From a virus (lineage: Duplodnaviria; Heunggongvirae; Uroviricota; Caudoviricetes), in IMG/VR virus record IMGVR_UViG_3300045988_010208: a stretch of DNA of 64,000 bases; one strand, given 5' to 3'. This document shows positions 3-63,931 of the stretch, piece after piece. Within the stretch, counting starts at the first letter, position 1, and each line of letters opens with the position of its first letter. A program made the position numbers and the translations under genes. The notes under the pieces are model-generated. The model saw only the letters and a program-made list of their open reading frames with translations, ran no database searches and had not been told where the DNA came from.

Positions 3-5797
<5,795 letters not shown>

Positions 5798-34414: not shown

Positions 34415-34656
34415 TGACTTATGTAATTTACTCCAAAACTGGATGCCCTCAGTGTGAGACTGCAAAGAATTTTGCAAAAGCTCGTGGTATTGACCATGTT
34501 GTGAGGATGTTAGGGCAGGATTATGAGCTATCAGAACTAATGGATATTGCACAGATGCCAGTTCGTCAGATGCCATTCATCATGAAAACTGATGGACAAA
34601 ACCTAAAACCTGTTGGGACGCTACAGAATTTTATGACAGAGGTGAATAATGCTTAA
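34414..34656 (+). CDS. glutaredoxin/NrdH-like redoxin
   Basis: 80 aa; N-terminal VIYSKTGCPQCETAK CxxC active site; immediately after nrdB. Confidence 0.7.
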   Translation: MTYVIYSKTGCPQCETAKNFAKARGIDHVVRMLGQDYELSELMDIAQMPVRQMPFIMKTDGQNLKPVGTLQNFMTEVNNA

Positions 34657-34855
34657 ACGCATTTGGGAAGGTTTGGTTGTTGATGCACCAGCTATTGTGA
34701 TTGGTATGCTTATTGTTAACCTATTTACTGACTTTGAACAAGGTTCATTGTTTGGAGCCATGTTACTATGGGTTATCTTCGAAATATTAGAGATACAGTT
34801 AGGTATCACTGAAAAACTAAGAGAACTCTTTGCGAAGTTTTCTAAAAAGATTTAA
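34649..34855 (+). CDS. small membrane protein
   Basis: 68-aa hydrophobic ORF. Confidence 0.35.
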   Translation: MLKRIWEGLVVDAPAIVIGMLIVNLFTDFEQGSLFGAMLLWVIFEILEIQLGITEKLRELFAKFSKKI

Positions 34856-37613: not shown

Positions 37614-37777
37614 CCTTATGTAAAACTTGACAAGGTGGTGTGGGTCTTGATAGGCTTACATCACCTTTTTTATTGGATGTTAGATATGGCAGAGAGTATT
37701 ATTGGGTTGTTCATAGGTTCTGTCTTACTAGGGTTCTTTTTAGGACTCTCTTATTGTGAATTGAGAGATAAGTTAAA

Positions 37778-37978
37778 ATGTTTAAAATATCAAAAACGTT
37801 GATATACATACTCCACATTCTAATCTTCTTCTTTGGGGTTAGTGTTATGGTATGGGGTTTTTCAGACCCACAATGGAGTTTATCATATCATGGACAAATG
37901 GATTTATGGTCATGCTTCAAACCATTTTTAGGGTTAGCTATAGCATTCAGTGCATTACCAACTAGGGTGAAATTATGA
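37778..37978 (+). CDS. small membrane protein
   Basis: 66 aa with hydrophobic N-terminus ILHILIFFFGVSVMVWG. Confidence 0.35.
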   Translation: MFKISKTLIYILHILIFFFGVSVMVWGFSDPQWSLSYHGQMDLWSCFKPFLGLAIAFSALPTRVKL

Positions 37979-43796: not shown

Positions 43797-43973
43797 ATGC
43801 AAGCATATTGGATAGAAATTTTACTGTCACTTGGTAGTGTAGCAGTATTTGTTTACCTTCTTTGCAAGTACTATGCAGAGCACAAGAAGTGTGACTACTG
43901 TAACGGAGAAGGGTACACAAGAGCAGGCTGTTGCCCTATGTGTGGTGGTTCTGGTAAAATGTTTAATAAGTAA
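43797..43973 (+). CDS. possible small membrane-anchored Cys-rich (zinc-finger) protein, 58 aa
   Basis: Not in ORF track; GAGGTGA RBS; my translation MQAYWIEILLSLGSVAVFVYLLCKYYAEHKKCDYCNGEGYTRAGCCPMCGGSGKMFNK (CxxCxGxG + CxxCxGxG). Confidence 0.4.
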   Translation: MQAYWIEILLSLGSVAVFVYLLCKYYAEHKKCDYCNGEGYTRAGCCPMCGGSGKMFNK

Positions 43974-44001: not shown

Positions 44002-46368
44002 ATGCGCATGGTAAATGACCACGCAGAAGTGATTAAGAGTTCAACTTCTTTGGAGACATCTCAAGCACAGATTACAATGACACCTGAAATGTTCAGCCTT
44101 CTGAGTTCTGGTGTATACACATTCAAAGAAAGGGCAGTGATTCGTGAACTGTCATGTAATGCAGTAGATGCTCAGAAAGAAGCTGGAAAAGAGAACATCC
44201 CATTCCATGTGCATTTACCTACTCGATTTGAGCCTTACTTTGAAGTCCGTGACTTTGGAACTGGTTTAACCCATGACAAAGTAATGAGTTTGTACCTGAA
44301 CTACGGGGCTTCTACGAAGAATGACTCTAATGATTACATTGGTGCAATGGGTATCGGCTCAAAATCACCATTTGCAATTGCTCAGTCATTCACAGTGTCT
44401 AGCTATGTTGATGGTGTTGTTAATAAGTACTCTGTTTACCTTGAGAATGGTATCCCTCAAGTAACTAAGCTTACTACTAACCCAACAAATGAACCTAATG
44501 GCTTAGCTGTACGTGTGGCAGTTGCTGACCACCGTATTTCAAAGTTCTTTGAAGAGGCTGGTCACGTATACTCATACTTTGCTGTAAAACCAGAAAGTAA
44601 CATTGTATATGATGATGTGTTAGCAGATATGAACGTCATTGCTCGTGAAGAAGGTGTTTATGATGCCATGATTCATAAGCAAAGCTGGCGTTCTAGTGGT
44701 AACAGGACAGAGTTTAATGTGGTGATGGGTAATATTGCCTATCCAGTGAACATGGAAGCATTACTTGGTGATGATTTCTTCAAAGTCTTGCCAGAGTTTT
44801 TCCGTAGGAGCGTAGACCTTGTAAACATTTACATGCCTATTGGTTCAGTCGCTATTGCAGCTTCTCGTGAAGCATTGCAGATGAATGATACGACAAAAAA
44901 TGTTATCATTGAGGCTACTAAAAAGATAACTGAAGCAATTACAAAGGATGTTATCAAGAAAGTTAATAGCCAACCTACACTCATGGATGCTGCACAGGCT
45001 TATGCAGAGTTACGTTTGAACTCACGAGAAATGTTTAATGCTGTGTGTCCAAAGCTAGAGTGGGGAGGTGTTAAGCTTGATTCTCTGGAAGAAGAATTGC
45101 TAAACATTCGTCGTGGGATTATCTACGCAGAAGACGGCTCAGTCATTTATGAACGTGACGGTAAAGGTAATATCAAGGTTGATAGGAACGGGAACAATAT
45201 CCCTAAAGTGGATTATCTTTATAATCCAGTTGCTTATGTCAAGTTCAACTCTTTAGAGAGTAAGATTCGTGCAACAGCACTTTCCTACACTCAAGAGGCA
45301 AGTATGTTCAATATCTTTGGTGCAATGCGTAAAAGCCAAATTGAACAGTTTTTGTTCGTGATAAATGACCGTCGTAATAAAAATGGCACTGAGAAGACTG
45401 TAGGCCGCAATCAGATTCTGCGTGGTGCATGTCGAGATTACGCCAATGAGTCAAATCTGTTTCACAGATACAATGGTATTGTGTTTGTATTCTCGACTGA
45501 AAAAGAGTTAGATGATTTAATCAACCTGCATAAACTTGATAAAAGTTTGTTAAAGATTGTGAAAATGTCTGATAAGGAGCACCATTACCAGCGTAAAGAA
45601 GCTGTCAGGGGTGTTGTAAAACTCTGGAAAGCAGTTCCGGCAGAAGGTGTAGCCTCCTACAAAGAGGTGTCAGAAGACTTAGACACAATTGAAGAACCTC
45701 AGCTTTACATTAAGGCAGTTGGTGACACAGTTGATGGCGAATGTTTTTGCTCATCTCCAGAAGATGTAGCTAAGTCAGTTGCTAATGTTATAGGGAAGAC
45801 AGTCTATGTTTTCCGAAAAGCAAATTGGAAAAAGATACCAGAAGACTGGATTGAAGTAGATGAGAAGCTCTTGAACGACAGCTTAACTGATGTTCATTGG
45901 ATTAATCATAACAGGTATATGACACGCATCTACATGAATGGTGTTCTTGACCTTACAAGCAGTTGGATTATTGCCAGAAACTTTACATTCAATAACAGGA
46001 AGATTTCTCGTGGCTATTGCTATTCACGAGATACTAGCAAAACTATCTTCCTAGAAGGTAATGAAGAGGCTGTAGAGGCTATGTTCGGTAAAATCCAGTA
46101 TGTTGCTGCACCGTTTGCATACACTTACACTATTAGTAGATTGCAAACTTTGAAAGAATGCCTTGACAATGATACAAAACTGTACAAGAAAATTAAGAAA
46201 GCTGGTGACCGCATGGTCATTAAGGTGACAAACTACCTTTCAAAAAGAAAACAAGAGAACTTCTTGCTTTCTCATTTAGATTGGAATAAAGTGTCACCCA
46301 TCGAAGTGAGTAAGTTCTTAGGCTTTGATGTGAAGTGTGTTCCAGAAGGGACTACAATTTACGATTAA
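44002..46368 (+). CDS. rIIA: rIIA-like protein with N-terminal GHKL-type ATPase motifs
   Basis: 788 aa; N-terminal RELSCNAVDAQ, RDFGTGL and GAMGIGSKSPF boxes as in T4 rIIA / GHKL ATPases. Confidence 0.65.
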   Translation: MRMVNDHAEVIKSSTSLETSQAQITMTPEMFSLLSSGVYTFKERAVIRELSCNAVDAQKEAGKENIPFHVHLPTRFEPYFEVRDFGTGLTHDKVMSLYLNYGASTKNDSNDYIGAMGIGSKSPFAIAQSFTVSSYVDGVVNKYSVYLENGIPQVTKLTTNPTNEPNGLAVRVAVADHRISKFFEEAGHVYSYFAVKPESNIVYDDVLADMNVIAREEGVYDAMIHKQSWRSSGNRTEFNVVMGNIAYPVNMEALLGDDFFKVLPEFFRRSVDLVNIYMPIGSVAIAASREALQMNDTTKNVIIEATKKITEAITKDVIKKVNSQPTLMDAAQAYAELRLNSREMFNAVCPKLEWGGVKLDSLEEELLNIRRGIIYAEDGSVIYERDGKGNIKVDRNGNNIPKVDYLYNPVAYVKFNSLESKIRATALSYTQEASMFNIFGAMRKSQIEQFLFVINDRRNKNGTEKTVGRNQILRGACRDYANESNLFHRYNGIVFVFSTEKELDDLINLHKLDKSLLKIVKMSDKEHHYQRKEAVRGVVKLWKAVPAEGVASYKEVSEDLDTIEEPQLYIKAVGDTVDGECFCSSPEDVAKSVANVIGKTVYVFRKANWKKIPEDWIEVDEKLLNDSLTDVHWINHNRYMTRIYMNGVLDLTSSWIIARNFTFNNRKISRGYCYSRDTSKTIFLEGNEEAVEAMFGKIQYVAAPFAYTYTISRLQTLKECLDNDTKLYKKIKKAGDRMVIKVTNYLSKRKQENFLLSHLDWNKVSPIEVSKFLGFDVKCVPEGTTIYD

Positions 46369-46373
46369 AGTGT

Positions 46374-46403
46374 TTGACAAGGGGCTTCAAAGCCCCTTAG
46401 AAT
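46374..46403 (+). promoter_or_regulatory. promoter-like element with hairpin in spacer
   Basis: TTGACA, then GGGGCTT-CAA-AGCCCC hairpin, then TAGAAT at 18-nt spacing; about 45 nt upstream of 46448. Confidence 0.4.
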
Positions 46404-46447
46404 AGCCTTACAAAATGGTTTATTAACTAACAAGAGAGAGTAATAAG

Positions 46448-47557
46448 ATGACTACTAAAACTAAAGCACAGATTGACGCAGAAATTTACAAACTGGTTAA
46501 AGAAGGTAAGCTGACTAAAACAGCTATTGCACAGAAATTTAATACTTCAACCCGTTCAGTTGGTCGTGCTGTAGAGCGTCATGAAGCAACCTTAAAAGGT
46601 AATAAGAAGGCGACTTCTACACCAGCTACGAAGACTTTGAAACAAGTTGCTAAGACTTTTAAAAAGAAATCTGGCAAACAAGTTGAAAAGGTCGTTAAAG
46701 ATGCTGTACAGAAAGCTCCAGTAAATAAACTGCATGAAGCTATGCAGAAAGATGACAAAATTGAGTACATGATTACTGGTGACTCTGTAATTATGACTTA
46801 CGGTTCAGAGTCTGAAATTGTTGAATCTACTCATCCGAACTATCAAGAGATTGTAGTTCATGTTGTGAAAGGTGAGTTCAAGAAAGCCTTTGAACTGATG
46901 AACATTCGTAAGTCTATCGAAAACTTCACTCAGGGTGCTATCACAATCAAAGGTGACAAGTTATTCTACGGTGCTGTTGAGATGCGCTCTACTCTGGTTG
47001 ACCGTATTCTTCACATGATGAAGACTGGAGATAAAGGTTTTGAACGCCTTGTGATGTTCTTCGAAAAACTGATGGAAAACCCATCTAAAGACTCTGTAGA
47101 ACAACTTTGGGGCTTTGTATCTCACCTTGATGTTGAAATTGATGAAGAAGGCTACATCATTGGTTGGAAGAAAGTCTCTACTCGTGAAGGTAAGCTGGTT
47201 GACTCCCACACCTACAGAGTACCTAATGATTTGGGTAACATTGTAGAGATGCCACGTTGGATGGTTGATAATAACCGTAACGTAACTTGCTCTCAAGGTC
47301 TTCATGTTGGTGCTTGGGATTATGTTCGTTGCTTCTCAGGTGATACAATCCTGAAGGTTCGTGTCCATCCACGAGATGTTGTATCTGTTCCAACTGATTA
47401 CAATGATATGAAGATGCGCTCGTCTCGTTATGAAGTTGCAGCAATCGTTGATAGTCAACGTAAAGTGCTGAAAGCATGGGATGGCAAGACTGACGCTTTA
47501 CATGTCATCGTCGGTACTGCTGGAGAACTTATCTCCCAACGTAAACGTGAAATCTAA
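46448..47557 (+). CDS. rIIB: putative rIIB-like protein
   Basis: 369-aa ORF immediately downstream of the rIIA-like gene; N-terminal HTH-like segment; call rests on synteny. Confidence 0.4.
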   Translation: MTTKTKAQIDAEIYKLVKEGKLTKTAIAQKFNTSTRSVGRAVERHEATLKGNKKATSTPATKTLKQVAKTFKKKSGKQVEKVVKDAVQKAPVNKLHEAMQKDDKIEYMITGDSVIMTYGSESEIVESTHPNYQEIVVHVVKGEFKKAFELMNIRKSIENFTQGAITIKGDKLFYGAVEMRSTLVDRILHMMKTGDKGFERLVMFFEKLMENPSKDSVEQLWGFVSHLDVEIDEEGYIIGWKKVSTREGKLVDSHTYRVPNDLGNIVEMPRWMVDNNRNVTCSQGLHVGAWDYVRCFSGDTILKVRVHPRDVVSVPTDYNDMKMRSSRYEVAAIVDSQRKVLKAWDGKTDALHVIVGTAGELISQRKREI

Positions 47558-47572
47558 TAAGTAATTTCTTAA

Positions 47573-47596
47573 AAGGCTGCTTCGGCGGCCTTTTTT
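47573..47596 (+). terminator. intrinsic terminator
   Basis: GGCUGC-UUCG-GCGGCC hairpin followed by UUUUUUAUUU. Confidence 0.65.
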
Positions 47597-47657
47597 ATTT
47601 GTATTTTGTGCAGAGTGCTGTATAATTGTTGTCACGATAAACTAAACAGGAGAACCA

Positions 47658-48206
47658 ATGAAGAAATTGATTCTAGGTTTGTGCTTAATGTTTACAGCAC
47701 ACTTATCTTATGCAGTTGACTGCCCAGAGCTATCAATTAGCCAAAAAGTAAACATGTTAAAAGCTTACCAGTATGGTGAGAATAACATGGGTAAAGGTTG
47801 GGGTATCACTCTAGCTGCTATAGCCTTACAAGAGTCAGAGTTAGGTCTGAAGGTAGAGAATAAAAAGACGCATGATTATGGTATTTTCCAGAATCACTTG
47901 AAGACTGTTGTAAAGCGTAACAAAATCAGTCCTAATGTGGCTAAAAAGAAACTCTTAAAAGACTTTGACTATGCTGCGAAGGAAACGCACAAAGAGCTTG
48001 AGTTTTGGACAAAGGTACATGGTCAGCCAAAGTCAAAGAAGACTTTACAAAAAGTTTTAGCATCATATAATGCTGGGTATTCGTACAGAATCCCTAAAGC
48101 TAAGAAATATTCTCAAGATGTTTATAACAATATGAAAGTAATTGCTCAATGTGAATTTGCAACAAACATTTCTAAGGTAGACCATGAAAAAATTAAGAAA
48201 GTCTGA
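47658..48206 (+). CDS. secreted lytic transglycosylase (SLT domain)
   Basis: 182 aa; signal peptide MKKLILGLCLMFTAHLSYA; SLT motifs LQESELG (catalytic E-S), YGIFQ, SYNAGYSY. Confidence 0.6.
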   Translation: MKKLILGLCLMFTAHLSYAVDCPELSISQKVNMLKAYQYGENNMGKGWGITLAAIALQESELGLKVENKKTHDYGIFQNHLKTVVKRNKISPNVAKKKLLKDFDYAAKETHKELEFWTKVHGQPKSKKTLQKVLASYNAGYSYRIPKAKKYSQDVYNNMKVIAQCEFATNISKVDHEKIKKV

Positions 48207-48879
48207 TGAAGTATTGTGCCATGCTTATGACTTACATCCTCATGAGTTAGGACTTGATTCCTGTGTATGGACTCCAGAACAGTGCAGGGATTTTGAAGAC
48301 ACCGCAAGAGAAGTTGTATGTTCACTTGAAGAGTTCCACACATCAGAACCAATTGTGAACGTTGTGGACAAAGAGACTGGGCAATCAATAGGTGTAAAAC
48401 GTGATAGTTTAGTCATAATCAATAAAGACCTTATAGAAAAAGGGAATCTCATCTTAGCAGATATTGATGGTGTTCTTACAAATTTTAATCACGAAGATTG
48501 TTCAACGGAATTGACTGATGGCTCATTTTCACAGTACACTAATCTTCTTGACTCTGTAAGAGCAAAACCAACGTATGTTTTCAATATCATTGATGCAATT
48601 GCTAATCATGCTGCCGTTGGACTCTTGACAGCGAGAGGCGAATCTCAGAGAATACCCACTGAGATGTTTTTAAGGCATAACACGGAGCATGACTACATGC
48701 TTTTTATGCGTGGTTTTGGGACTAACTCTATAAGTGCAGAAAGTTTGAAAGTGAGGATGATTCAGTCTTGCATCCTGCCTTACTTTAATATAGTATGTTT
48801 TATAGAAGACACAGAGAAGAATGTGCAGAAGGTGAACAGAATCCTTCCACACATTAAAACCATGTTAGTTAAACATTGA
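48184..48879 (+). CDS. putative HAD-superfamily phosphatase
   Basis: 231 aa; HAD motif I ILADIDGVLT, motif II-like GLLTARGE, motif IV-like FIEDTEKN. Confidence 0.4.
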   Translation: MKKLRKSDEVLCHAYDLHPHELGLDSCVWTPEQCRDFEDTAREVVCSLEEFHTSEPIVNVVDKETGQSIGVKRDSLVIINKDLIEKGNLILADIDGVLTNFNHEDCSTELTDGSFSQYTNLLDSVRAKPTYVFNIIDAIANHAAVGLLTARGESQRIPTEMFLRHNTEHDYMLFMRGFGTNSISAESLKVRMIQSCILPYFNIVCFIEDTEKNVQKVNRILPHIKTMLVKH

Positions 48880-48889
48880 GAGAAAACTT

Positions 48890-49354
48890 ATGAACAATAT
48901 CATTACGGTAGCACTGGACGATACGGTAAACAAATCTGCAATAGTTCGTAAAATGATTCAAGGTAACTTTGAAGGTAAAATTTTTCGTGCTGTTAATGTA
49001 AAAGCTGATGGCAGCATTCGTGAATATCGTGCATTATTGAATGTTAAAAAACACGTAAAAGGTGCTGGTTCAACGACTGCACACAAAGAAAACCTGATGA
49101 CTATCTATGATATGGGTAAGGCTTCAGAGTTAGGTGCTGAAGGTATCGTTAAAGAAGGTGCTCCGTATCGCTCTTTCAATCTGGAAACTACTCTTATGCT
49201 TTCCTTTACAAGTGGTTCTAAAACAATCACTTATCTCTTTACTGATGCTGCAACGGTATCTGCTATCAAGGATAGCACTGTCAAAGCTGGGGTAGCTGCT
49301 GCTGCAAAAGCTTCTTCGATGGCTGCAAATGTCCTTGCTAAAGTCCTCGGTTAA
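48890..49354 (+). CDS. hypothetical protein
   Basis: 154-aa ORF with Ala-rich C-terminus; followed by a terminator. Confidence 0.4.
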   Translation: MNNIITVALDDTVNKSAIVRKMIQGNFEGKIFRAVNVKADGSIREYRALLNVKKHVKGAGSTTAHKENLMTIYDMGKASELGAEGIVKEGAPYRSFNLETTLMLSFTSGSKTITYLFTDAATVSAIKDSTVKAGVAAAAKASSMAANVLAKVLG

Positions 49355-49365
49355 GGTTAAGATAC

Positions 49366-49388
49366 AGGCTCCTTCGGGAGCCTTTTTC
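49366..49388 (+). terminator. intrinsic terminator
   Basis: GGCUCC-UUCG-GGAGCC hairpin followed by UUUUU. Confidence 0.7.
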
Positions 49389-49406
49389 ATTTCAGGAGAT
49401 TGTTAA

Positions 49407-49754
49407 ATGACATTTAAAGAGTTCTGTCAAGCCACTTTCATAATTGTTTTCTTAGTTGGGGCAGGTGTCTGGGGAGGATACTCTTACAGAGACTATCAAG
49501 TTGCTGAAACTGAGCTAAACAACCAAAAGCTCATAAGTGTTGCTAAAGATGCTTATCAGGAAGGATTAGTCACACTGAGCACCAATTACAAAAATGATTT
49601 GAAAGATGTGCTTGCTAAGAATAAGCATACAAAAGAGGTACTAACATATGAAAAAACTAAGCCAGAGTTTTATAATGTTTGTGTTACTGATAACTATGTC
49701 AGGGTGTTCAACGAACAAAGTGAGCAGTACATTCAAAAACTCCCAAGTAAGTGA
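49407..49754 (+). CDS. candidate i-spanin (inner-membrane anchored periplasmic protein)
   Basis: 115 aa; N-terminal TM helix FIIVFLVGAGVWGGY then charged helical region; 3' end overlapped out of frame by a lipoprotein ORF. Confidence 0.4.
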   Translation: MTFKEFCQATFIIVFLVGAGVWGGYSYRDYQVAETELNNQKLISVAKDAYQEGLVTLSTNYKNDLKDVLAKNKHTKEVLTYEKTKPEFYNVCVTDNYVRVFNEQSEQYIQKLPSK

Positions 49755-49917
49755 GAGTGATAAGTACACTCAAGAAGAATCACGGTACATCATCAAAGGC
49801 AACACAGGCAGTGATGTAGCAGCAGCCCTTGAGTTCTATCGTGATGGATTTTACCAGTGCACAATCAAAGCTAATAACCTTATTGATATGATTTTATTAG
49901 GGAATAAGCAGCAATGA
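49648..49917 (+). CDS. candidate o-spanin (outer-membrane lipoprotein)
   Basis: 89 aa; signal peptide MKKLSQSFIMFVLLITMSGC with lipobox-like MSGC; starts inside 49407-49754 in another frame. Confidence 0.4.
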   Translation: MKKLSQSFIMFVLLITMSGCSTNKVSSTFKNSQVSESDKYTQEESRYIIKGNTGSDVAAALEFYRDGFYQCTIKANNLIDMILLGNKQQ

Positions 49918-50183
49918 CAGAGAATCAAGATACTTTCTATGTAGAAGGTTACTTACTGTTACCACGACCAAAAGAAACTTATATGCGAATTGATTTCTCA
50001 CCAACCATCATGGATAATGTGATGTGCCATCTCTTTATGCAAGGTGTCACAGCACAACTTAAGCATGTTGGCAAAGAGTGCAAAATAAAGGTTGACACTC
50101 ATCCAGAAATCAAAGAGAATCACTACACATGGTTCTTACCAGACTCTAAAGAAATCTTAGCAGTTCTTAAAACGAGGAAGTAA
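49914..50183 (+). CDS. hypothetical protein
   Basis: 89-aa ORF. Confidence 0.35.
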   Translation: MTENQDTFYVEGYLLLPRPKETYMRIDFSPTIMDNVMCHLFMQGVTAQLKHVGKECKIKVDTHPEIKENHYTWFLPDSKEILAVLKTRK

Positions 50184-50185
50184 CT

Positions 50186-50512
50186 ATGCAGATTAATGGA
50201 AGAGATTTTGTAGCTGTTTACTACGAGAAAGGTAAAGAAGTTGGCGTAGCACAAGTATCTTATGGCAATGGTAAGTGGCTATATGGAACAATCGCAGTAG
50301 TAGGCACAAGAAGTGATACAAAAACCTTTAAAGATTGTGTTGACCTTCTTGAAGAATCCATCCAGAATCATTGGTGTCTGATATGGATGACTGACAATGA
50401 AGTGATAGAACGTTTCAAAAAGATTGATATCAACATTGACAGTATTGAGCATGTTGATTTATATGAACTAACTGAGAAGGTAAACTATGAAAGTAATACT
50501 AGCCAGAGATAA
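50186..50512 (+). CDS. hypothetical protein
   Basis: 108-aa ORF. Confidence 0.35.
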   Translation: MQINGRDFVAVYYEKGKEVGVAQVSYGNGKWLYGTIAVVGTRSDTKTFKDCVDLLEESIQNHWCLIWMTDNEVIERFKKIDINIDSIEHVDLYELTEKVNYESNTSQR

Positions 50513-50714
50513 AAAGACACGGAAAATTATCCGGTCAGCAGTATCCATTGGAAGAAATGAAGTGATTCCTTTTACAGCAAATGATGTGATAATCTACAGG
50601 AAAAAATTAACATTCAGTTATTGCTTACGTGGCTTTATCTCCCAGCCATTGGAAGACTTTAAAAGTCGTTGTGGTAAAGGTATCATCATTCAAGAGGCAA
50701 TTATCAATGGCTGA
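50487..50714 (+). CDS. hypothetical protein
   Basis: 75-aa ORF. Confidence 0.3.
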   Translation: MKVILARDKKTRKIIRSAVSIGRNEVIPFTANDVIIYRKKLTFSYCLRGFISQPLEDFKSRCGKGIIIQEAIING

Positions 50715-50907
50715 CTTCTGCAAAGACTGTTCCATCGAAATGTTCGGACGTGATACAGGTGACTTAAAAGGTCTCATCACTGAAGATGACTTTAAAGCTG
50801 GCTATGCAATGCCAGTAATCTGTGAAGGTTGTGGGTGTATCTGGGTAGACCACGAAGGGCAACGTGTAAAACCTTCAGAAGATAAAGAATCTTGGGAGAG
50901 ATGTTAA
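50707..50907 (+). CDS. small Cys-rich protein
   Basis: ORF 50629-50907 trimmed to internal ATG overlapping the upstream stop; CKDC...CEGCGC cysteine clusters. Confidence 0.35.
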   Translation: MADFCKDCSIEMFGRDTGDLKGLITEDDFKAGYAMPVICEGCGCIWVDHEGQRVKPSEDKESWERC

Positions 50908-51693
50908 ATGGGTATTGTAAAAATTATCAATGGCGATATCTTTGACGCATTTGATAAAGGTAAGTTTGACATCATTGGTCATGGTTGCAACTGTATGAAT
51001 TTCATGGGTGCAGGTATTGCAGCAACTATTTCTAAGCGTTATCCAAAAGTGTATGATACTGATACAGAAGTTTACCTGTTTGCAGGTGGCATTCGTCACA
51101 AACCCTGTGAAAATTTACTAGGCAATTTCTCTGTAGCACGTTTAAAACAAGGTCGTATAGCTAACCTTTACACCCAACTTCATACTGGTAAAGATGCCCG
51201 ATACAGTGCTTTAGAGTCATCTTTGAAACAGCTTAACAGATACTGTGAAGTTAACCAGTTGAAGAAAGTTGGCCTGCCTATGATTGGTGCAGGTATCGGT
51301 GGACTTGACCCTCAAGCTGTCACAGTTATCATCAATCAGGTGATGAAGAGCGTAGATGTTTACCTGTATGTCTACGAGGCAGAGATGTACAACAAGTTAC
51401 ACTCAGGTTGGAAGAACTACTGTGAACCAGAATACTTTGCGGGTGTAGTAGTGTTCACAGACAACACAGTTACCCTCTTCAGACGAAGAAAAGGTAAGAT
51501 ACATCAAAGTAACCCTCCGGTTGAAAAGATGTCTCTAAGTAACGCTCTAGTTACCCACCTGTCGAAGAGCAATCACAGAATTGCAGTAACATTTGGCAGT
51601 GATGCAGATACATATATCTATGCAAGAACTGATGAGGATGTTGAGGAAATTTTCTCTTCACCAGAAGTTACCTTCTTAGACGCAAAGAACTAA
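50908..51693 (+). CDS. macro-domain-like protein (putative ADP-ribose binding/processing)
   Basis: 261 aa; N-terminal IINGDIF...IIGHGCNCMNFMGAGIAATISKRYP pattern typical of macro/Appr-1-p-type domains; C-terminal 100 aa unassigned. Confidence 0.5.
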   Translation: MGIVKIINGDIFDAFDKGKFDIIGHGCNCMNFMGAGIAATISKRYPKVYDTDTEVYLFAGGIRHKPCENLLGNFSVARLKQGRIANLYTQLHTGKDARYSALESSLKQLNRYCEVNQLKKVGLPMIGAGIGGLDPQAVTVIINQVMKSVDVYLYVYEAEMYNKLHSGWKNYCEPEYFAGVVVFTDNTVTLFRRRKGKIHQSNPPVEKMSLSNALVTHLSKSNHRIAVTFGSDADTYIYARTDEDVEEIFSSPEVTFLDAKN

Positions 51694-51724
51694 GAAACTC
51701 TGTAGAATATTCACAATAGATTAA

Positions 51725-51768
51725 GCCTTTCTTATCTGGTAAATTTTTCAGGTAAGGAGGGCTTTTTT
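51725..51768 (+). terminator. terminator-like hairpin
   Basis: GCCUUUCUU ... AAGGAGGGC stem (two G-U pairs, long loop) followed by UUUUUU. Confidence 0.4.
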
Positions 51769-51775
51769 ATTTCAG

Positions 51776-51945
51776 AATTGTGCAGGTAGAGTTCTGTAGA
51801 GAAATCTGTAGAGAGAATTTTGAACTCCAAAGGGAAAATCCATTTTCAAGTTGTGCAGGTAATCTCCAAAGAGCTTTTTCATTTTCAAAACGTGCAGAGA
51901 AAAATCAGGTCGGGCAAGAAAAATCATTTTAGAATTGTGCAGGTA
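51776..51945 (+). promoter_or_regulatory. four spaced copies of motif AAAATC-ATTTTCA-RAATTGTGCAGGTA
   Basis: Copies near 51776-51788, 51849-51861, 51889-51900 (degenerate) and 51933-51945, in an ORF-free 420-bp region between the macro-domain gene and the small-gene array. Confidence 0.5.
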
Positions 51946-52121
51946 GGTGGGTGTAGGTGGGGATGTCACCATTTCTCACAAGGCTACCACATCCGAAAAG
52001 AAAAGTCAACAGAAAAATTTGTAGCGGATTGAAAAATAATTCTTGATTTGTGTTCTGTTTTGTGGTATTCGCGCGCACCCGTTTCATTGCATTTTTGCCA
52101 AAAATATTTTTAAAATTTTTC

Positions 52122-52180
52122 TTGACTATTCGAACGGGGTTATCTAGTATTTGCATCAACGGGGAGGAAATGACTTCCCC
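52122..52180 (+). promoter_or_regulatory. type-1 promoter-stem-loop cassette (copy 1)
   Basis: TTGACT -17 nt- TAGTAT, then hairpin GGGGAGG-AAATGA-CTTCCCC at the predicted transcript 5' end, then conserved leader to ATG 52214; AT-rich UP-like tract upstream. Confidence 0.65.
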
Positions 52181-52213
52181 ACTAAATAAACCCTTAAACT
52201 AGGAGATTCTAAA

Positions 52214-53630: not shown

Positions 53631-53927
53631 ATGAAATTATCAAATAAAGTCCGTGAAAATCTAAGCAAGTTACTTAACAAAATTGATTTTATTGAGACAT
53701 CAAGGAATAGTCATGATGTTATGGAATGGTTACACGGAAAAATAAAAGGCCGTCGTGTAGTGATTTGCTTATGGAATAGTTGCAGGGAGTATAAAAAACC
53801 TGTATTGCAGGTCAATATTTATGATGATACTTTTAAAAGCCCTGTAAAGTCTAAAAGCGATTTATTAGAATCTTATGAGATAACTGTAAGTGGCAAAGTA
53901 TCACGTAAAGAGGAAACACCATGTTAA
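53631..53927 (+). CDS. hypothetical early protein
   Basis: 98-aa ORF after a type-2 cassette. Confidence 0.5.
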   Translation: MKLSNKVRENLSKLLNKIDFIETSRNSHDVMEWLHGKIKGRRVVICLWNSCREYKKPVLQVNIYDDTFKSPVKSKSDLLESYEITVSGKVSRKEETPC

Positions 53928-54253
53928 TGACTGGCATCACTGCAATCATTGCCATTCTCGCGCTTTATAAGGCATATAAAGCCTATAATCTAGCAAATAA
54001 GGCAATCACACAGCAGGTTAGCAATAACCTTGTAGAAAGCTTTCTAGGGCGCCTCAGTGATGAGCAAATAAAGCGGCTAGAGATGAGCTTCAGATATAAA
54101 GCGAAAACCTATCAGATAAGTGACATCTTCAAAGATGATTTTCAGTTAGTCGATGATTATAATTCACTGATAAATGCTTTAAATATCAGTGACTTGAAAG
54201 ACTATTACGCTGTAATTGTCCAAGAATTGAGCAAACGAAAACAAAGTGTTTGA
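53921..54253 (+). CDS. hypothetical early membrane protein
   Basis: 110 aa; N-terminal hydrophobic helix MLMTGITAIIAILALY; ATG overlaps upstream stop. Confidence 0.45.
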   Translation: MLMTGITAIIAILALYKAYKAYNLANKAITQQVSNNLVESFLGRLSDEQIKRLEMSFRYKAKTYQISDIFKDDFQLVDDYNSLINALNISDLKDYYAVIVQELSKRKQSV

Positions 54254-60084: not shown

Positions 60085-60588
60085 CTATAATTGTAGGTTG
60101 CATTCTTTACTTACCTCTTCAAGTTTAACCTCAGAGTCCTTAAGTCGTTTCTTATGAACTCTGAATCTCATTAGTGAGGTGATGATACCAACTAAAGGGA
60201 CAGCATACAAGTACCAAACATCATATACCTTTGCAGTAATCTGTGTAATGGTCAAGTCTTGAGCTATGTAACTAATTGCTGATACGGCTAGTAATGTTGC
60301 TAAGAAGAAAACCAGTATCATAGCAATACTCAGACAACCTCTGGCATGGTATTCATGCTTAATGCACTTATTCTTTTCGTCAACAACCCTGTTGTAGTCA
60401 TTTGTAAAGTCTCTGTAGAAAGCTTTCAAGTATTCTTGAGTGTAGCCTTCAAAGCAACCTGTGCCATACCAATAATCACCACCAAAGTGTGCTATGATAC
60501 CGGTATCTCCATTTGGTTTCGTCACTCTTAAAGAAGTGTGATGGCGAGTATCCTGAAAATCTATCTTGTATCTTTCTTCGTAAATCAT
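60085..60588 (-). CDS. hypothetical membrane protein
   Basis: 167 aa; hydrophobic segments LSIAMILVFFLATLLAVSAISYI and AVPLVGIITSLM. Confidence 0.4.
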   Translation of the reverse strand: MIYEERYKIDFQDTRHHTSLRVTKPNGDTGIIAHFGGDYWYGTGCFEGYTQEYLKAFYRDFTNDYNRVVDEKNKCIKHEYHARGCLSIAMILVFFLATLLAVSAISYIAQDLTITQITAKVYDVWYLYAVPLVGIITSLMRFRVHKKRLKDSEVKLEEVSKECNLQL

Positions 60589-63466: not shown

Positions 63467-63931
63467 TTACTTTGGGTATACACTGTCAAGATAAATGTCA
63501 GCTTCCATTCTACGTCTGTTTTTCAGGCCGTTTGAAGTGACCTTCTTACCTTTGACTGTAACCTTGTTCCACCATTGCATAGCTTCTGCACAACCGACCT
63601 TATTACCAGCATTGTGGCGCTTGATAAATGTGGAATCCTGCATAGCTGTGATGCCAATGTTGTATGTTTCACTTACAAGTGCGTCAAACTCGTTCTGAGA
63701 AGTTGGAACCTTGACGGCTTTATTCACTGCTGCAACGAACTTTTCAACATCTTCGAGAAGATACTGTTCAGCTTGTTCAGCGGTAATCTTCATACCCATC
63801 TTAACAGGTTTACCAGAAATACGGATTGTCCCGTACCCAATTGTAGGGATTCCAGCAGAATCTTCGTAAGCCTCTAGCTTAAGACCTTCAAAGAACTTAA
63901 TAGCTTCTAAACCTTTTCTTGAGAGTTGCAT
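63467..63931 (-). CDS. endolysin, phage lysozyme (GH24, P22 gp19 / T4 e-like)
   Basis: 154 aa; LEAIKFFEGLKLEAYEDSAGIPTIGYGT matches the catalytic Glu/Asp region and GYGH-type motif of lambdoid/P22 lysozymes. Confidence 0.85.
   Translation of the reverse strand: MQLSRKGLEAIKFFEGLKLEAYEDSAGIPTIGYGTIRISGKPVKMGMKITAEQAEQYLLEDVEKFVAAVNKAVKVPTSQNEFDALVSETYNIGITAMQDSTFIKRHNAGNKVGCAEAMQWWNKVTVKGKKVTSNGLKNRRRMEADIYLDSVYPK

Follow-up and report, generated by a model that had tools for sequence, protein, structure and literature searches.

The spanins of phages lambda (Rz/Rz1) and T4 (PseT.3/PseT.2) each pair a type II inner-membrane protein with a small outer-membrane lipoprotein; the two genes are adjacent, and the pairs contain periplasmic cysteine. 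Overlapped two-component spanins have been listed for Felix O1 (as Felix01), FO1a, UAB_Phi87, phiEa21-4 and FSL SP-010 (Kongari et al. 2018, SpaninDB, PMC6139136), and a scattered arrangement of the lysis genes has been published for Felix O1-like phages (PMC4319497, PMC4837284). The UAB_Phi87 paper likewise reports a dispersed lysin and the lack of an adjacent holin. Here, we analyzed a stretch of 64,000 nucleotides from a virus of the class Caudoviricetes (IMG/VR virus record IMGVR_UViG_3300045988_010208), called the window in the following. It contains a predicted spanin pair (49407-49754 and 49648-49917, both on the plus strand) and, 1.2 kb upstream on the same strand, an open reading frame (ORF) for a protein with SLT motifs (47658-48206). 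An earlier note on this DNA had joined them into one lysis-accessory cluster. Its ORFs were all present at the positions it gave, but we consider it highly probable that the region holds two separate things, an independent two-component spanin and a Sec-exported Vs.1-type transglycosylase, both on the rIIA-rIIB side of the genome.

Over positions 46400-51700, the window shares 95-96% DNA identity with the Escherichia phages VpaE1, LinBro and UAB_Phi87 and with many other Felixounavirus genomes. The same query matched 277 phage records, with a query coverage of at least 80% in 220 of them. Because of this DNA match, the window is assigned to the genus Felixounavirus and is the genome of a Felix O1-like myophage.

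The first ORF of the pair (49407-49754; 348 nt, 115 amino acids) matched PHROG 1152 ('Rz-like spanin') from end to end (E 1.1e-41), and its orthologues are named 'Rz-like spanin' in RefSeq. Hydropathy peaked at 1.75 for residues 6-24 when averaged over 19 residues and at 2.91 for residues 11-21 when averaged over 11, and the scan gave no second hydrophobic segment beyond residues 6-24. This N-terminal hydrophobic segment is kept in eight homologues. With this single transmembrane (TM) segment near the N-terminus and a periplasmic domain after it, the product, referred to as the i-spanin, is predicted to sit in the inner membrane in type II (N-in, C-out) orientation.

The second ORF (49648-49917; 270 nt, 89 amino acids) starts 107 nt ahead of the i-spanin gene's stop codon, in the +1 frame. 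Its product, the predicted o-spanin, matched PHROG 4180 (E 2e-50) and weakly PHROG 456, 'Rz-like spanin' (E 3e-4). The N-terminus reads MKKLSQSFIMFVLLITMSG-C20, in which the signal sequence ends with ITMSG-C20, providing the lipobox T-M-S-G-C20 (Cys20 codon 49705-49707) and a Ser at position +2. The protein is thereby a predicted outer-membrane lipoprotein precursor, with Cys20 as the putative lipidation site. The same arrangement was present in 9/9 fetched loci, where a protein of 115-132 amino acids with a hydrophobic N-terminus is followed by a lipoprotein-like ORF overlapping it by 101-164 nt. In Michonne, ORF lengths of 348 and 270 nt and the overlap of 107 nt are exactly those of the window. 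An i-spanin and an o-spanin are annotated at homologous positions in Michonne, Moogle, ESCO45, KPS64 and many other records, and the o-spanin of the window is 100% identical to the ESCO45 protein, annotated as o-spanin, and shares 98.9% identity with its Felix O1 counterpart.

A tblastn search with the 89-residue o-spanin matched 343 phage records, all of them with at least 80% coverage and an open frame, at identities from 100% (ESCO45) down to 29%. The matches comprise other Ounavirinae genera, Gordonclarkvirinae (EP335, SGF2), Sashavirus and some Klebsiella and Proteus phages. Across eight homologues of 30-80% identity, residues C20, G51, G54, C71, N76 and L78 of the o-spanin are invariant, and the C-terminal part follows the motif EFYRD.FYQC71.IK.N.LID. 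For the i-spanin, E82, K83, F88, N90, C92, Y97, N102 and E103 are invariant in eight homologues, within the conserved motif EKTKP.F.N.C92..D.YVR.FNE. The lipobox Cys together with one conserved periplasmic Cys per partner extends to Ounavirinae, Gordonclarkvirinae (EP335) and Sashavirus at 23-35% identity. At position +2 of the o-spanin, seven homologues have Ser, Sasha and phi_270 have Thr, and none has Asp, which fits sorting to the outer membrane. In Lol sorting, it is the absence of Asp at this position that directs a lipoprotein to the outer membrane. The invariant i-spanin Cys92 and o-spanin Cys71 fit the rule that spanins need intermolecular disulfides and thus at least one periplasmic Cys (Kongari et al. 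2018, PMC6139136).

To assess selection, the window was compared with Michonne in a gapless alignment at ~80% protein identity. Outside the overlap, 25.5 of 31.2 synonymous sites differ in the o-spanin frame versus 15.5 of 127.8 non-synonymous sites, the non-synonymous differing fraction being ~0.15 of the synonymous one. The unique part of the i-spanin gene gave a ratio of non-synonymous to synonymous divergence (dN/dS) of 0.10. Within the overlap (105-108 nt analyzed), DNA divergence falls to 13%, compared with 22-26% outside, and dS is 0.21 and 0.13 in the two frames, compared with values above 1.3 outside; synonymous change is suppressed in both. The o-spanin reading frame is under purifying selection, and since the pattern of divergence matches coding in both frames, the ORF is a real gene. 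An unexpressed frame that is open by chance within and after the i-spanin gene might be suspected from a short, overlapped ORF that is not proline-rich and appears only as 'hypothetical protein' in several GenBank records. This is barely credible in view of the selection on the frame, which is open in all 343 matching records whereas the other two frames of the stretch contain 3 and 9 stop codons, of the invariant Cys20 and Cys71, and of an AAGAGG Shine-Dalgarno sequence located 8 nt 5' of the ATG at 49648.

The pairing of the two overlapped ORFs as i-spanin and o-spanin, already proposed in the earlier note, thus gains from the PHROG spanin matches, the TM segment, the lipobox, the conserved Cys residues and the dual-frame selection. 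From these features, we take the two ORFs to encode a real two-component spanin of the overlapped type. The note itself had called the o-spanin weak, a caution that the invariant Cys20 and Cys71 and the purifying selection on the frame make unnecessary; the sequence-based assignment is strong. It had also found Met at lipobox position -3 unusual. Over the homologues, this position reads M, M, M, T, I, T, I and I, with G, A or S at -1; Met recurs in Michonne and SarahDanielle, I or T stand there in distant homologues, and the Cys is invariant. Lambda Rz1 is proline-rich, unlike the mature o-spanin of the window. The latter contains no proline at all, so the observation that it is not Pro-rich stands; as an objection it falls away, as proline richness does not define o-spanins and T4 PseT.2 is described as a structured beta-alpha-beta protein (PMC6139136). 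Non-consensus lipoboxes are documented for several o-spanins in the same study (PMC6139136).

Compared with the described systems, nothing of substance differs between the spanins of the window and the Felix O1-type spanins of its relatives; only the calls of the o-spanin start codon vary by record. The gene layout is overlapped in the window, embedded in lambda and separated in T4. The window pair has one conserved periplasmic Cys per partner; in T4, by contrast, two are found in the o-spanin and none in the i-spanin (PMC6139136). As in T4, where the spanin pair lies remote from the endolysin gene and near pseT, the window pair is found far from its endolysin gene and near a pseT-like gene. 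Orthology to PseT.3/PseT.2 was considered and rejected: comparison of the proteins revealed no similarity beyond signal peptide and lipobox, so that the pseT-like vicinity amounts to loose synteny. Judged by their sequences, the window spanins form a family distinct from the T4 pair.

The spanin pair itself is already known, being annotated in close relatives and listed in the spanin literature, and the structure of the locus as recorded here is correct but ordinary. What varies in GenBank is the length of the o-spanin (270, 222, 201 or 198 nt), and only the 270-nt version retains the full signal peptide and the lipobox. The ESCO45 call (2549-2770 in the fetched locus, 222 nt) starts at residue 17, at the lipobox, and the KPS64 call (3367-3564 in the fetched locus, 198 nt) at residue 25, past the lipobox; both remove the signal peptide. 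In SarahDanielle the call is 2576-2776 in the fetched locus (201 nt), and the record gives the label o-spanin to the i-spanin gene as well. For annotation, the 270-nt ORF with its ATG at 49648 should be taken as the o-spanin, as the later starts in several GenBank records drop signal peptide and lipobox.

The main murein hydrolase of the window is predicted to be a soluble GH24 endolysin encoded on the minus strand at 63467-63931, ~13.5 kb from the spanins. It matched Pfam PF00959, Phage_lysozyme (E 2e-41), and PHROG 7, endolysin (E 1e-57). Its maximum 19-residue hydropathy is 0.52, and it has no signal-anchor-release (SAR) or TM segment. The distant, oppositely oriented endolysin and the dispersal of the lysis genes had both been seen in the earlier note, and the latter is a published trait of Felix O1-like phages. 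No holin gene was found near the window spanins, and no endolysin gene adjoins them. Such adjacency is not strict for spanins, the T4 spanins being remote from e and t as well (PMC6139136). In two relatives the pair does stand beside lysis genes: in Salmonella phage Sasha, the two homologous genes come at the end of a holin-endolysin-holin cassette, and in Pectobacterium phage Wc4-1 (Ounavirinae), they lie directly 3' of an orthologous GH24 endolysin gene whose product is 44% identical to the window endolysin. Both gene contexts support a spanin function.

In the mechanism that we propose, the N-terminal segment of the i-spanin would hold it in the inner membrane, and the o-spanin would be exported, receive its lipid at Cys20 and move on to the outer membrane, its +2 residue being Ser rather than Asp. 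The partners would bind each other through their periplasmic domains, probably stabilized by disulfides through the conserved Cys92 and Cys71. Once a holin has released the soluble GH24 endolysin and the murein has been destroyed, the spanin complex would fuse the inner and the outer membrane as the last step of lysis.

The second element, the SLT-like protein of 182 amino acids (47658-48206), begins with MKKLILGLCLMFTAHLSYA followed by VD. The putative signal peptide (residues 1-19, 47658-47714) reads MKK, then LILGLCLMFTAHL, then S-Y-A, with V as the next residue. N-terminal hydropathy reaches 1.64 over 19 residues, and the AlphaFold2 (AF2) pLDDT is below 50 at residues 1-19. An N-terminal hydrophobic segment is present in 154 of the 165 family representatives that start with Met. 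A SAR endolysin is an unlikely identity for this protein, the hydrophobic stretch being too short to span a membrane and followed by the S-Y-A cleavage-type site. The active-site motifs E59-S60 (Glu59 codon 47832-47834), G75-I-F-Q78 and S136-Y-N-A-G140 can all be read, and 15 aligned homologues show no variation at E59, Q78, Y137, N138 and G140. Among 169 family representatives, E59, Y137, G140 and Y151 each occur in 169/169, S60 in 163 and G75 in 160, while residue 78 is Gln in 94 and His in 66. The description of this ORF in the earlier note, as an exported murein enzyme with signal peptide and SLT motifs, is supported by these motifs, the hydrophobic N-terminus and the universal putative catalytic Glu.

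Pfam SLT (PF01464) was matched by 14 of the 15 homologues at E <=0.01 (best 8.2e-12), and the orthologue phiEa21-4 gp6 scores 23.2 bits, above the cut-off of that family. A search of the PDB with the single sequence gave no match at E <=1; the family profile found EtgA at E 7e-4, followed by goose-type lysozymes. The AF2 model has a goose-lysozyme-like alpha-helical fold and is a single domain of 182 residues, with no attachment domain. NCBIfam searches with the SLT, spanin, HAD and ORF154 proteins of the locus (the latter two are described below) returned only noise far under the cut-offs. Taken together, the protein is a predicted exported lytic transglycosylase of GH23 (family 1) with an intact active site. 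As GH23 also holds true lysozymes and a chitinase, the transglycosylase chemistry is the presumed rather than the established one.

Cys22 is accompanied by Cys165 in 39 of the 43 representatives that have it. This suggests a disulfide tying the N- and C-terminal helices together, which would fit a periplasmic location. The pair is found in Ounavirinae proteins, whereas most relatives, including the T4-type homologue P0017, lack it. The solved enzymes EtgA, MltE, Slt70 and MltC share only 13-20% sequence identity with the window protein. MltE and MltC are lipid-anchored and Slt70 has superhelical domains; the window protein is phage-encoded and has neither a lipid anchor nor such domains. EtgA, from the type III secretion system of enteropathogenic Escherichia coli (EPEC), is activated by the rod protein EscI. 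We know of no partner protein for the SLT-like protein.

A relationship that had escaped the earlier reading is that the SLT-like protein belongs, by its sequence matches, to the T4 Vs.1 family. It matched PHROG 600 (T4 Vs.1) at E 1e-57 and, by BLASTP, JS98 Vs.1 at E 6e-18 with 31% identity over residues 1-155, a stretch that includes the signal peptide, E-S, G..Q and SYNAG. Relatives were detected by tblastn in 2143 phage records, among them Ackermannviridae such as Cba120 (orf114) and T4-like phages infecting Escherichia, Klebsiella, Aeromonas, Vibrio and Acinetobacter. In the T4-like records, the feature that was hit frequently bears the name vs.1 (e.g., in Aeromonas phage 65, PEi20 and JS98). 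An exhaustive profile search retrieved 1265 representative clusters at E <=1e-3 and 604 at E <=1e-10. Nearly all members have 160-200 residues and align from residue 1. Among the orthologues, phiEa21-4 gp6 already bears the name 'Vs.1 conserved hypothetical protein', and those of SarahDanielle, Michonne and KPS64 are annotated as lytic transglycosylase, lysozyme-like domain protein or putative lysin. Nolan et al. 2006 (PMC1524935) noted that vs.1 from six T4-like phages matches SLT marginally, and proposed 'some role in cell lysis'; our literature search for a functional study of Vs.1 found none beyond this comparative genomics paper. A further Vs.1-like SLT protein (P0020) is encoded 1.4 kb from a chimallin gene on contig ACBEZJ010000004.1 of GCA_053226485.1 (214,766 bp, labelled Campylobacter coli). 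Given its gene for chimallin, the shell protein of the PhiKZ-type phage nucleus, this contig looks like a jumbo phage genome.

The surroundings of the SLT gene point to a transcription unit of its own. Downstream of rIIB (46448-47557, plus strand), an intrinsic terminator at 47571-47594 (plus strand; 10-bp stem with 5 GC pairs, then a T run) marks the upstream limit of this unit. It is annotated in Tribble and Michonne and conserved in an alignment of the promoter region. A sigma-70-like promoter, TTGTAT-16 nt-TATAAT, was read from the sequence at 47599-47626 on the plus strand, 31 nt 5' of the SLT start codon, and may drive the unit. In the alignment, TATAAT is invariant, and the -35 element is TTGAAA in Michonne and KPS64 (Mooglevirus). 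The SLT stop codon overlaps the start of the next gene (48184-48879, plus strand) by 23 nt, which suggests translational coupling. We infer that the SLT gene is transcribed together with this gene, as a separate unit after the rIIB terminator.

The coupled gene is called 'polynucleotide kinase' in relatives and matched PHROG 3970 (E 4e-134). Its product carries a DIDGVLT motif and no kinase P-loop of the form GxxxxGK[ST]. No Pfam match was obtained at E <=0.1; a weak match exists to the phosphatase half of T4 PseT, and the homologue on the distant Ounavirinae-like metagenomic contig L018 faintly matched Pfam HAD_PNKP. From these features, the protein appears to be a HAD-type phosphatase with no kinase part. 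The unit ends with ORF154 (48890-49354, plus strand; PHROG 2267), which is homologous to phiEa21-4 gp8, and on L018 a WYL_2-matching ORF in the same position is its presumed homologue. In Wc4-1 an endolysin gene occupies this place; a reading of ORF154 as a degenerate endolysin was rejected, as no similarity was found. A second intrinsic terminator hairpin follows at 49366-49383 (plus strand), 23 nt 5' of the i-spanin start codon. Four Ounavirinae genera keep this hairpin (Felixounavirus, Mooglevirus and those of Hafnia phage SarahDanielle and phiEa21-4), and substitutions occur in either half of its stem. It stands directly 5' of the i-spanin ribosome-binding site and leaves no room for a promoter before the spanin start.

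These elements bear on whether the exported transglycosylase and the spanins act as one coordinated lysis-accessory module, with the SLT-like protein as a second lysin clearing murein for the spanins at lysis. The genes are close and co-oriented, the enzyme would cut the very layer that is established to restrain spanins, the order rIIB-SLT-HAD-x-spanins is kept in Felixounavirus, Mooglevirus, SarahDanielle and phiEa21-4, and the KPS64 homologue is annotated 'putative lysin'. In addition, the terminator at 49366-49383 may leak, and as no promoter fits before the spanin start, transcription of the spanins by read-through is possible, as is transcription by processing or attenuation. However, a conserved terminator and two unrelated genes separate the SLT gene from the spanins, and the sigma-70-like promoter suggests that expression is early and not late. 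Outside the Ounavirinae the Vs.1 gene keeps other company: between regB and vs in T4-like phages such as JS98, and 3' of a gene 46 homologue in the Ackermannviridae Cba120 and SeF3a. In T4 itself, the Vs.1 locus presumably lies ~75 kb from pseT.3/pseT.2 on the map. L018 keeps the order rIIA-rIIB-x-SLT-HAD-...-macro, and no spanin-like ORF pair was seen in this interval. Conversely, the spanins of Wc4-1 and Sasha pair with a GH24 or cassette endolysin and not with an SLT gene; the Wc4-1 gene 5' of its HAD-like gene was tested as an SLT homologue and is not one. A joint module is therefore unlikely. Owing to the separate SLT unit, the conserved terminator, the Vs.1 genes far from spanins elsewhere and the L018 layout, we do not think that the SLT gene and the spanins work as the single unit assumed in the earlier note, and regard them as two independent envelope functions. 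The terminator, the Vs.1 contexts outside the Ounavirinae and the L018 layout likewise identify the rIIB/HAD neighbourhood, and not the spanins, as the stable partner of the SLT gene, which in the window stands 3' of rIIB in an operon-like arrangement with the HAD phosphatase gene.

Under the preferred explanation of two independent functions, the SLT-like protein, with Glu59 as putative catalytic residue, would be transcribed with the HAD gene from the sigma-70-like promoter just 3' of the rIIB terminator. Because of this promoter position, the enzyme would probably be in the periplasm well before lysis, nicking glycan strands. Early synthesis is suggested by the promoter together with the neighbourhood of early or middle gene counterparts: in T4, genes of the rIIA, rIIB, vs.1, pseT and tk.4 type belong to the early or middle classes and are not essential. 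An accessory role, weakening or remodelling the sacculus, is the most economical guess.

A stronger version of early action, in which the periplasmic role has nothing to do with lysis and the enzyme serves sacculus remodelling, superinfection interference or an anhydromuropeptide signal or nutrient, appears somewhat less doubtful to us than a joint module, though still improbable. It would accord with the promoter-like site and the position in a region of rII-, pseT- and tk.4-type genes, and with the spread of the family over 2143 records and 1265 clusters in large virulent phages that have their own cytoplasmic endolysins. The universal catalytic Glu and the widely kept export signal (154/165) point the same way, as does EtgA, the closest solved relative by profile, a 'specialised' transglycosylase that makes local openings and does not lyse the cell. 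On the other side, the timing rests solely on a consensus-like promoter, and no functional Vs.1 paper was found. We would likewise give only about one chance in four to the general form of this idea, by which the Vs.1-type enzyme is an early periplasmic effector and not a lysis protein across large virulent phages of Gram-negative bacteria (Felix O1-like, T4-like, Vi1-like and chimallin-encoding jumbo phages). It would then nick or remodel the wall of the infected cell, e.g., to control superinfection, to enlarge the cell or to signal by muropeptides.

The earlier note had further raised the option that the SLT-like protein is a virion- or entry-associated enzyme. As such, it would help the tail to cross the cell wall. 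We judge this very improbable, since the protein carries an export signal, which in 154/165 relatives would direct it to the periplasm and away from virion assembly in the cytoplasm. It is a small single domain of 182 residues with no domain for attachment, and its gene lies between rIIB and the phosphatase gene, outside the structural module. In the running text on the VpaE1 virion proteome, gp54, gp58, gp68 and gp75 are named and gp003 is not.

Several observations weigh against the overall explanation by an independent spanin and an exported Vs.1-type transglycosylase. A holin was not located in the window: six small TM ORFs were screened (53921-54253, 34649-34855, 37635-37802, 37778-37978 and 43797-43973 on the plus strand; 60085-60588 on the minus strand) and gave no holin family match, nor is a holin annotated there in the relatives listed. 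Michonne is reported with a 'class III holin', the position of which was not mapped onto the window. The family support for the spanin pair is purely bioinformatic, with no report found of a member that complements lambda Rz/Rz1 mutants, and the single-sequence AF2 model of the i-spanin, all-helical (H3-36, H42-71, H75-84, H86-110), is unreliable at a mean pLDDT of 46.9. For the SLT-like protein of the window, the Pfam SLT score is 19.0 bits (E 1e-3) at a gathering cut-off of 21.3, Foldseek E-values are weak (>=0.01), and the cleavage after Ala19 is our own reading. The -35 hexamer TTGTAT of its promoter has a 3/6 match and was unlisted by the promoter scanner.

These results leave the picture of Felix O1 lysis unchanged. 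In annotation, 47658-48206 is better described as a Vs.1-like exported lytic transglycosylase than as 'hypothetical protein' or 'lysin'. The one question that is touched is the role of the Vs.1 family, small predicted murein enzymes in thousands of virulent phages. Felix O1-like phages, with a compact genome and E. coli K-12 as host, would offer a convenient system for its study, and a question on a family of more than 1000 clusters is thereby attached to a well-known model phage.

The genome arm around the locus holds further counterparts of scattered non-essential T4 genes, comprising rIIA (44002-46368, plus strand), rIIB, the Vs.1-like and pseT-like genes and a gene for a macro-domain protein (50908-51693, plus strand; Pfam Macro, E 5e-7). 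The latter is called 'phosphatase' in relatives and is described as T4-type Tk.4-like in phiEa21-4. Between the o-spanin and macro genes, several small plus-strand ORFs without assigned function occupy 49914-50907. The macro gene is followed by ~520 nt without a convincing ORF (51694-52213), a stretch that opens with a very strong terminator-like hairpin with a 17-bp stem and a T run at 51723-51764.

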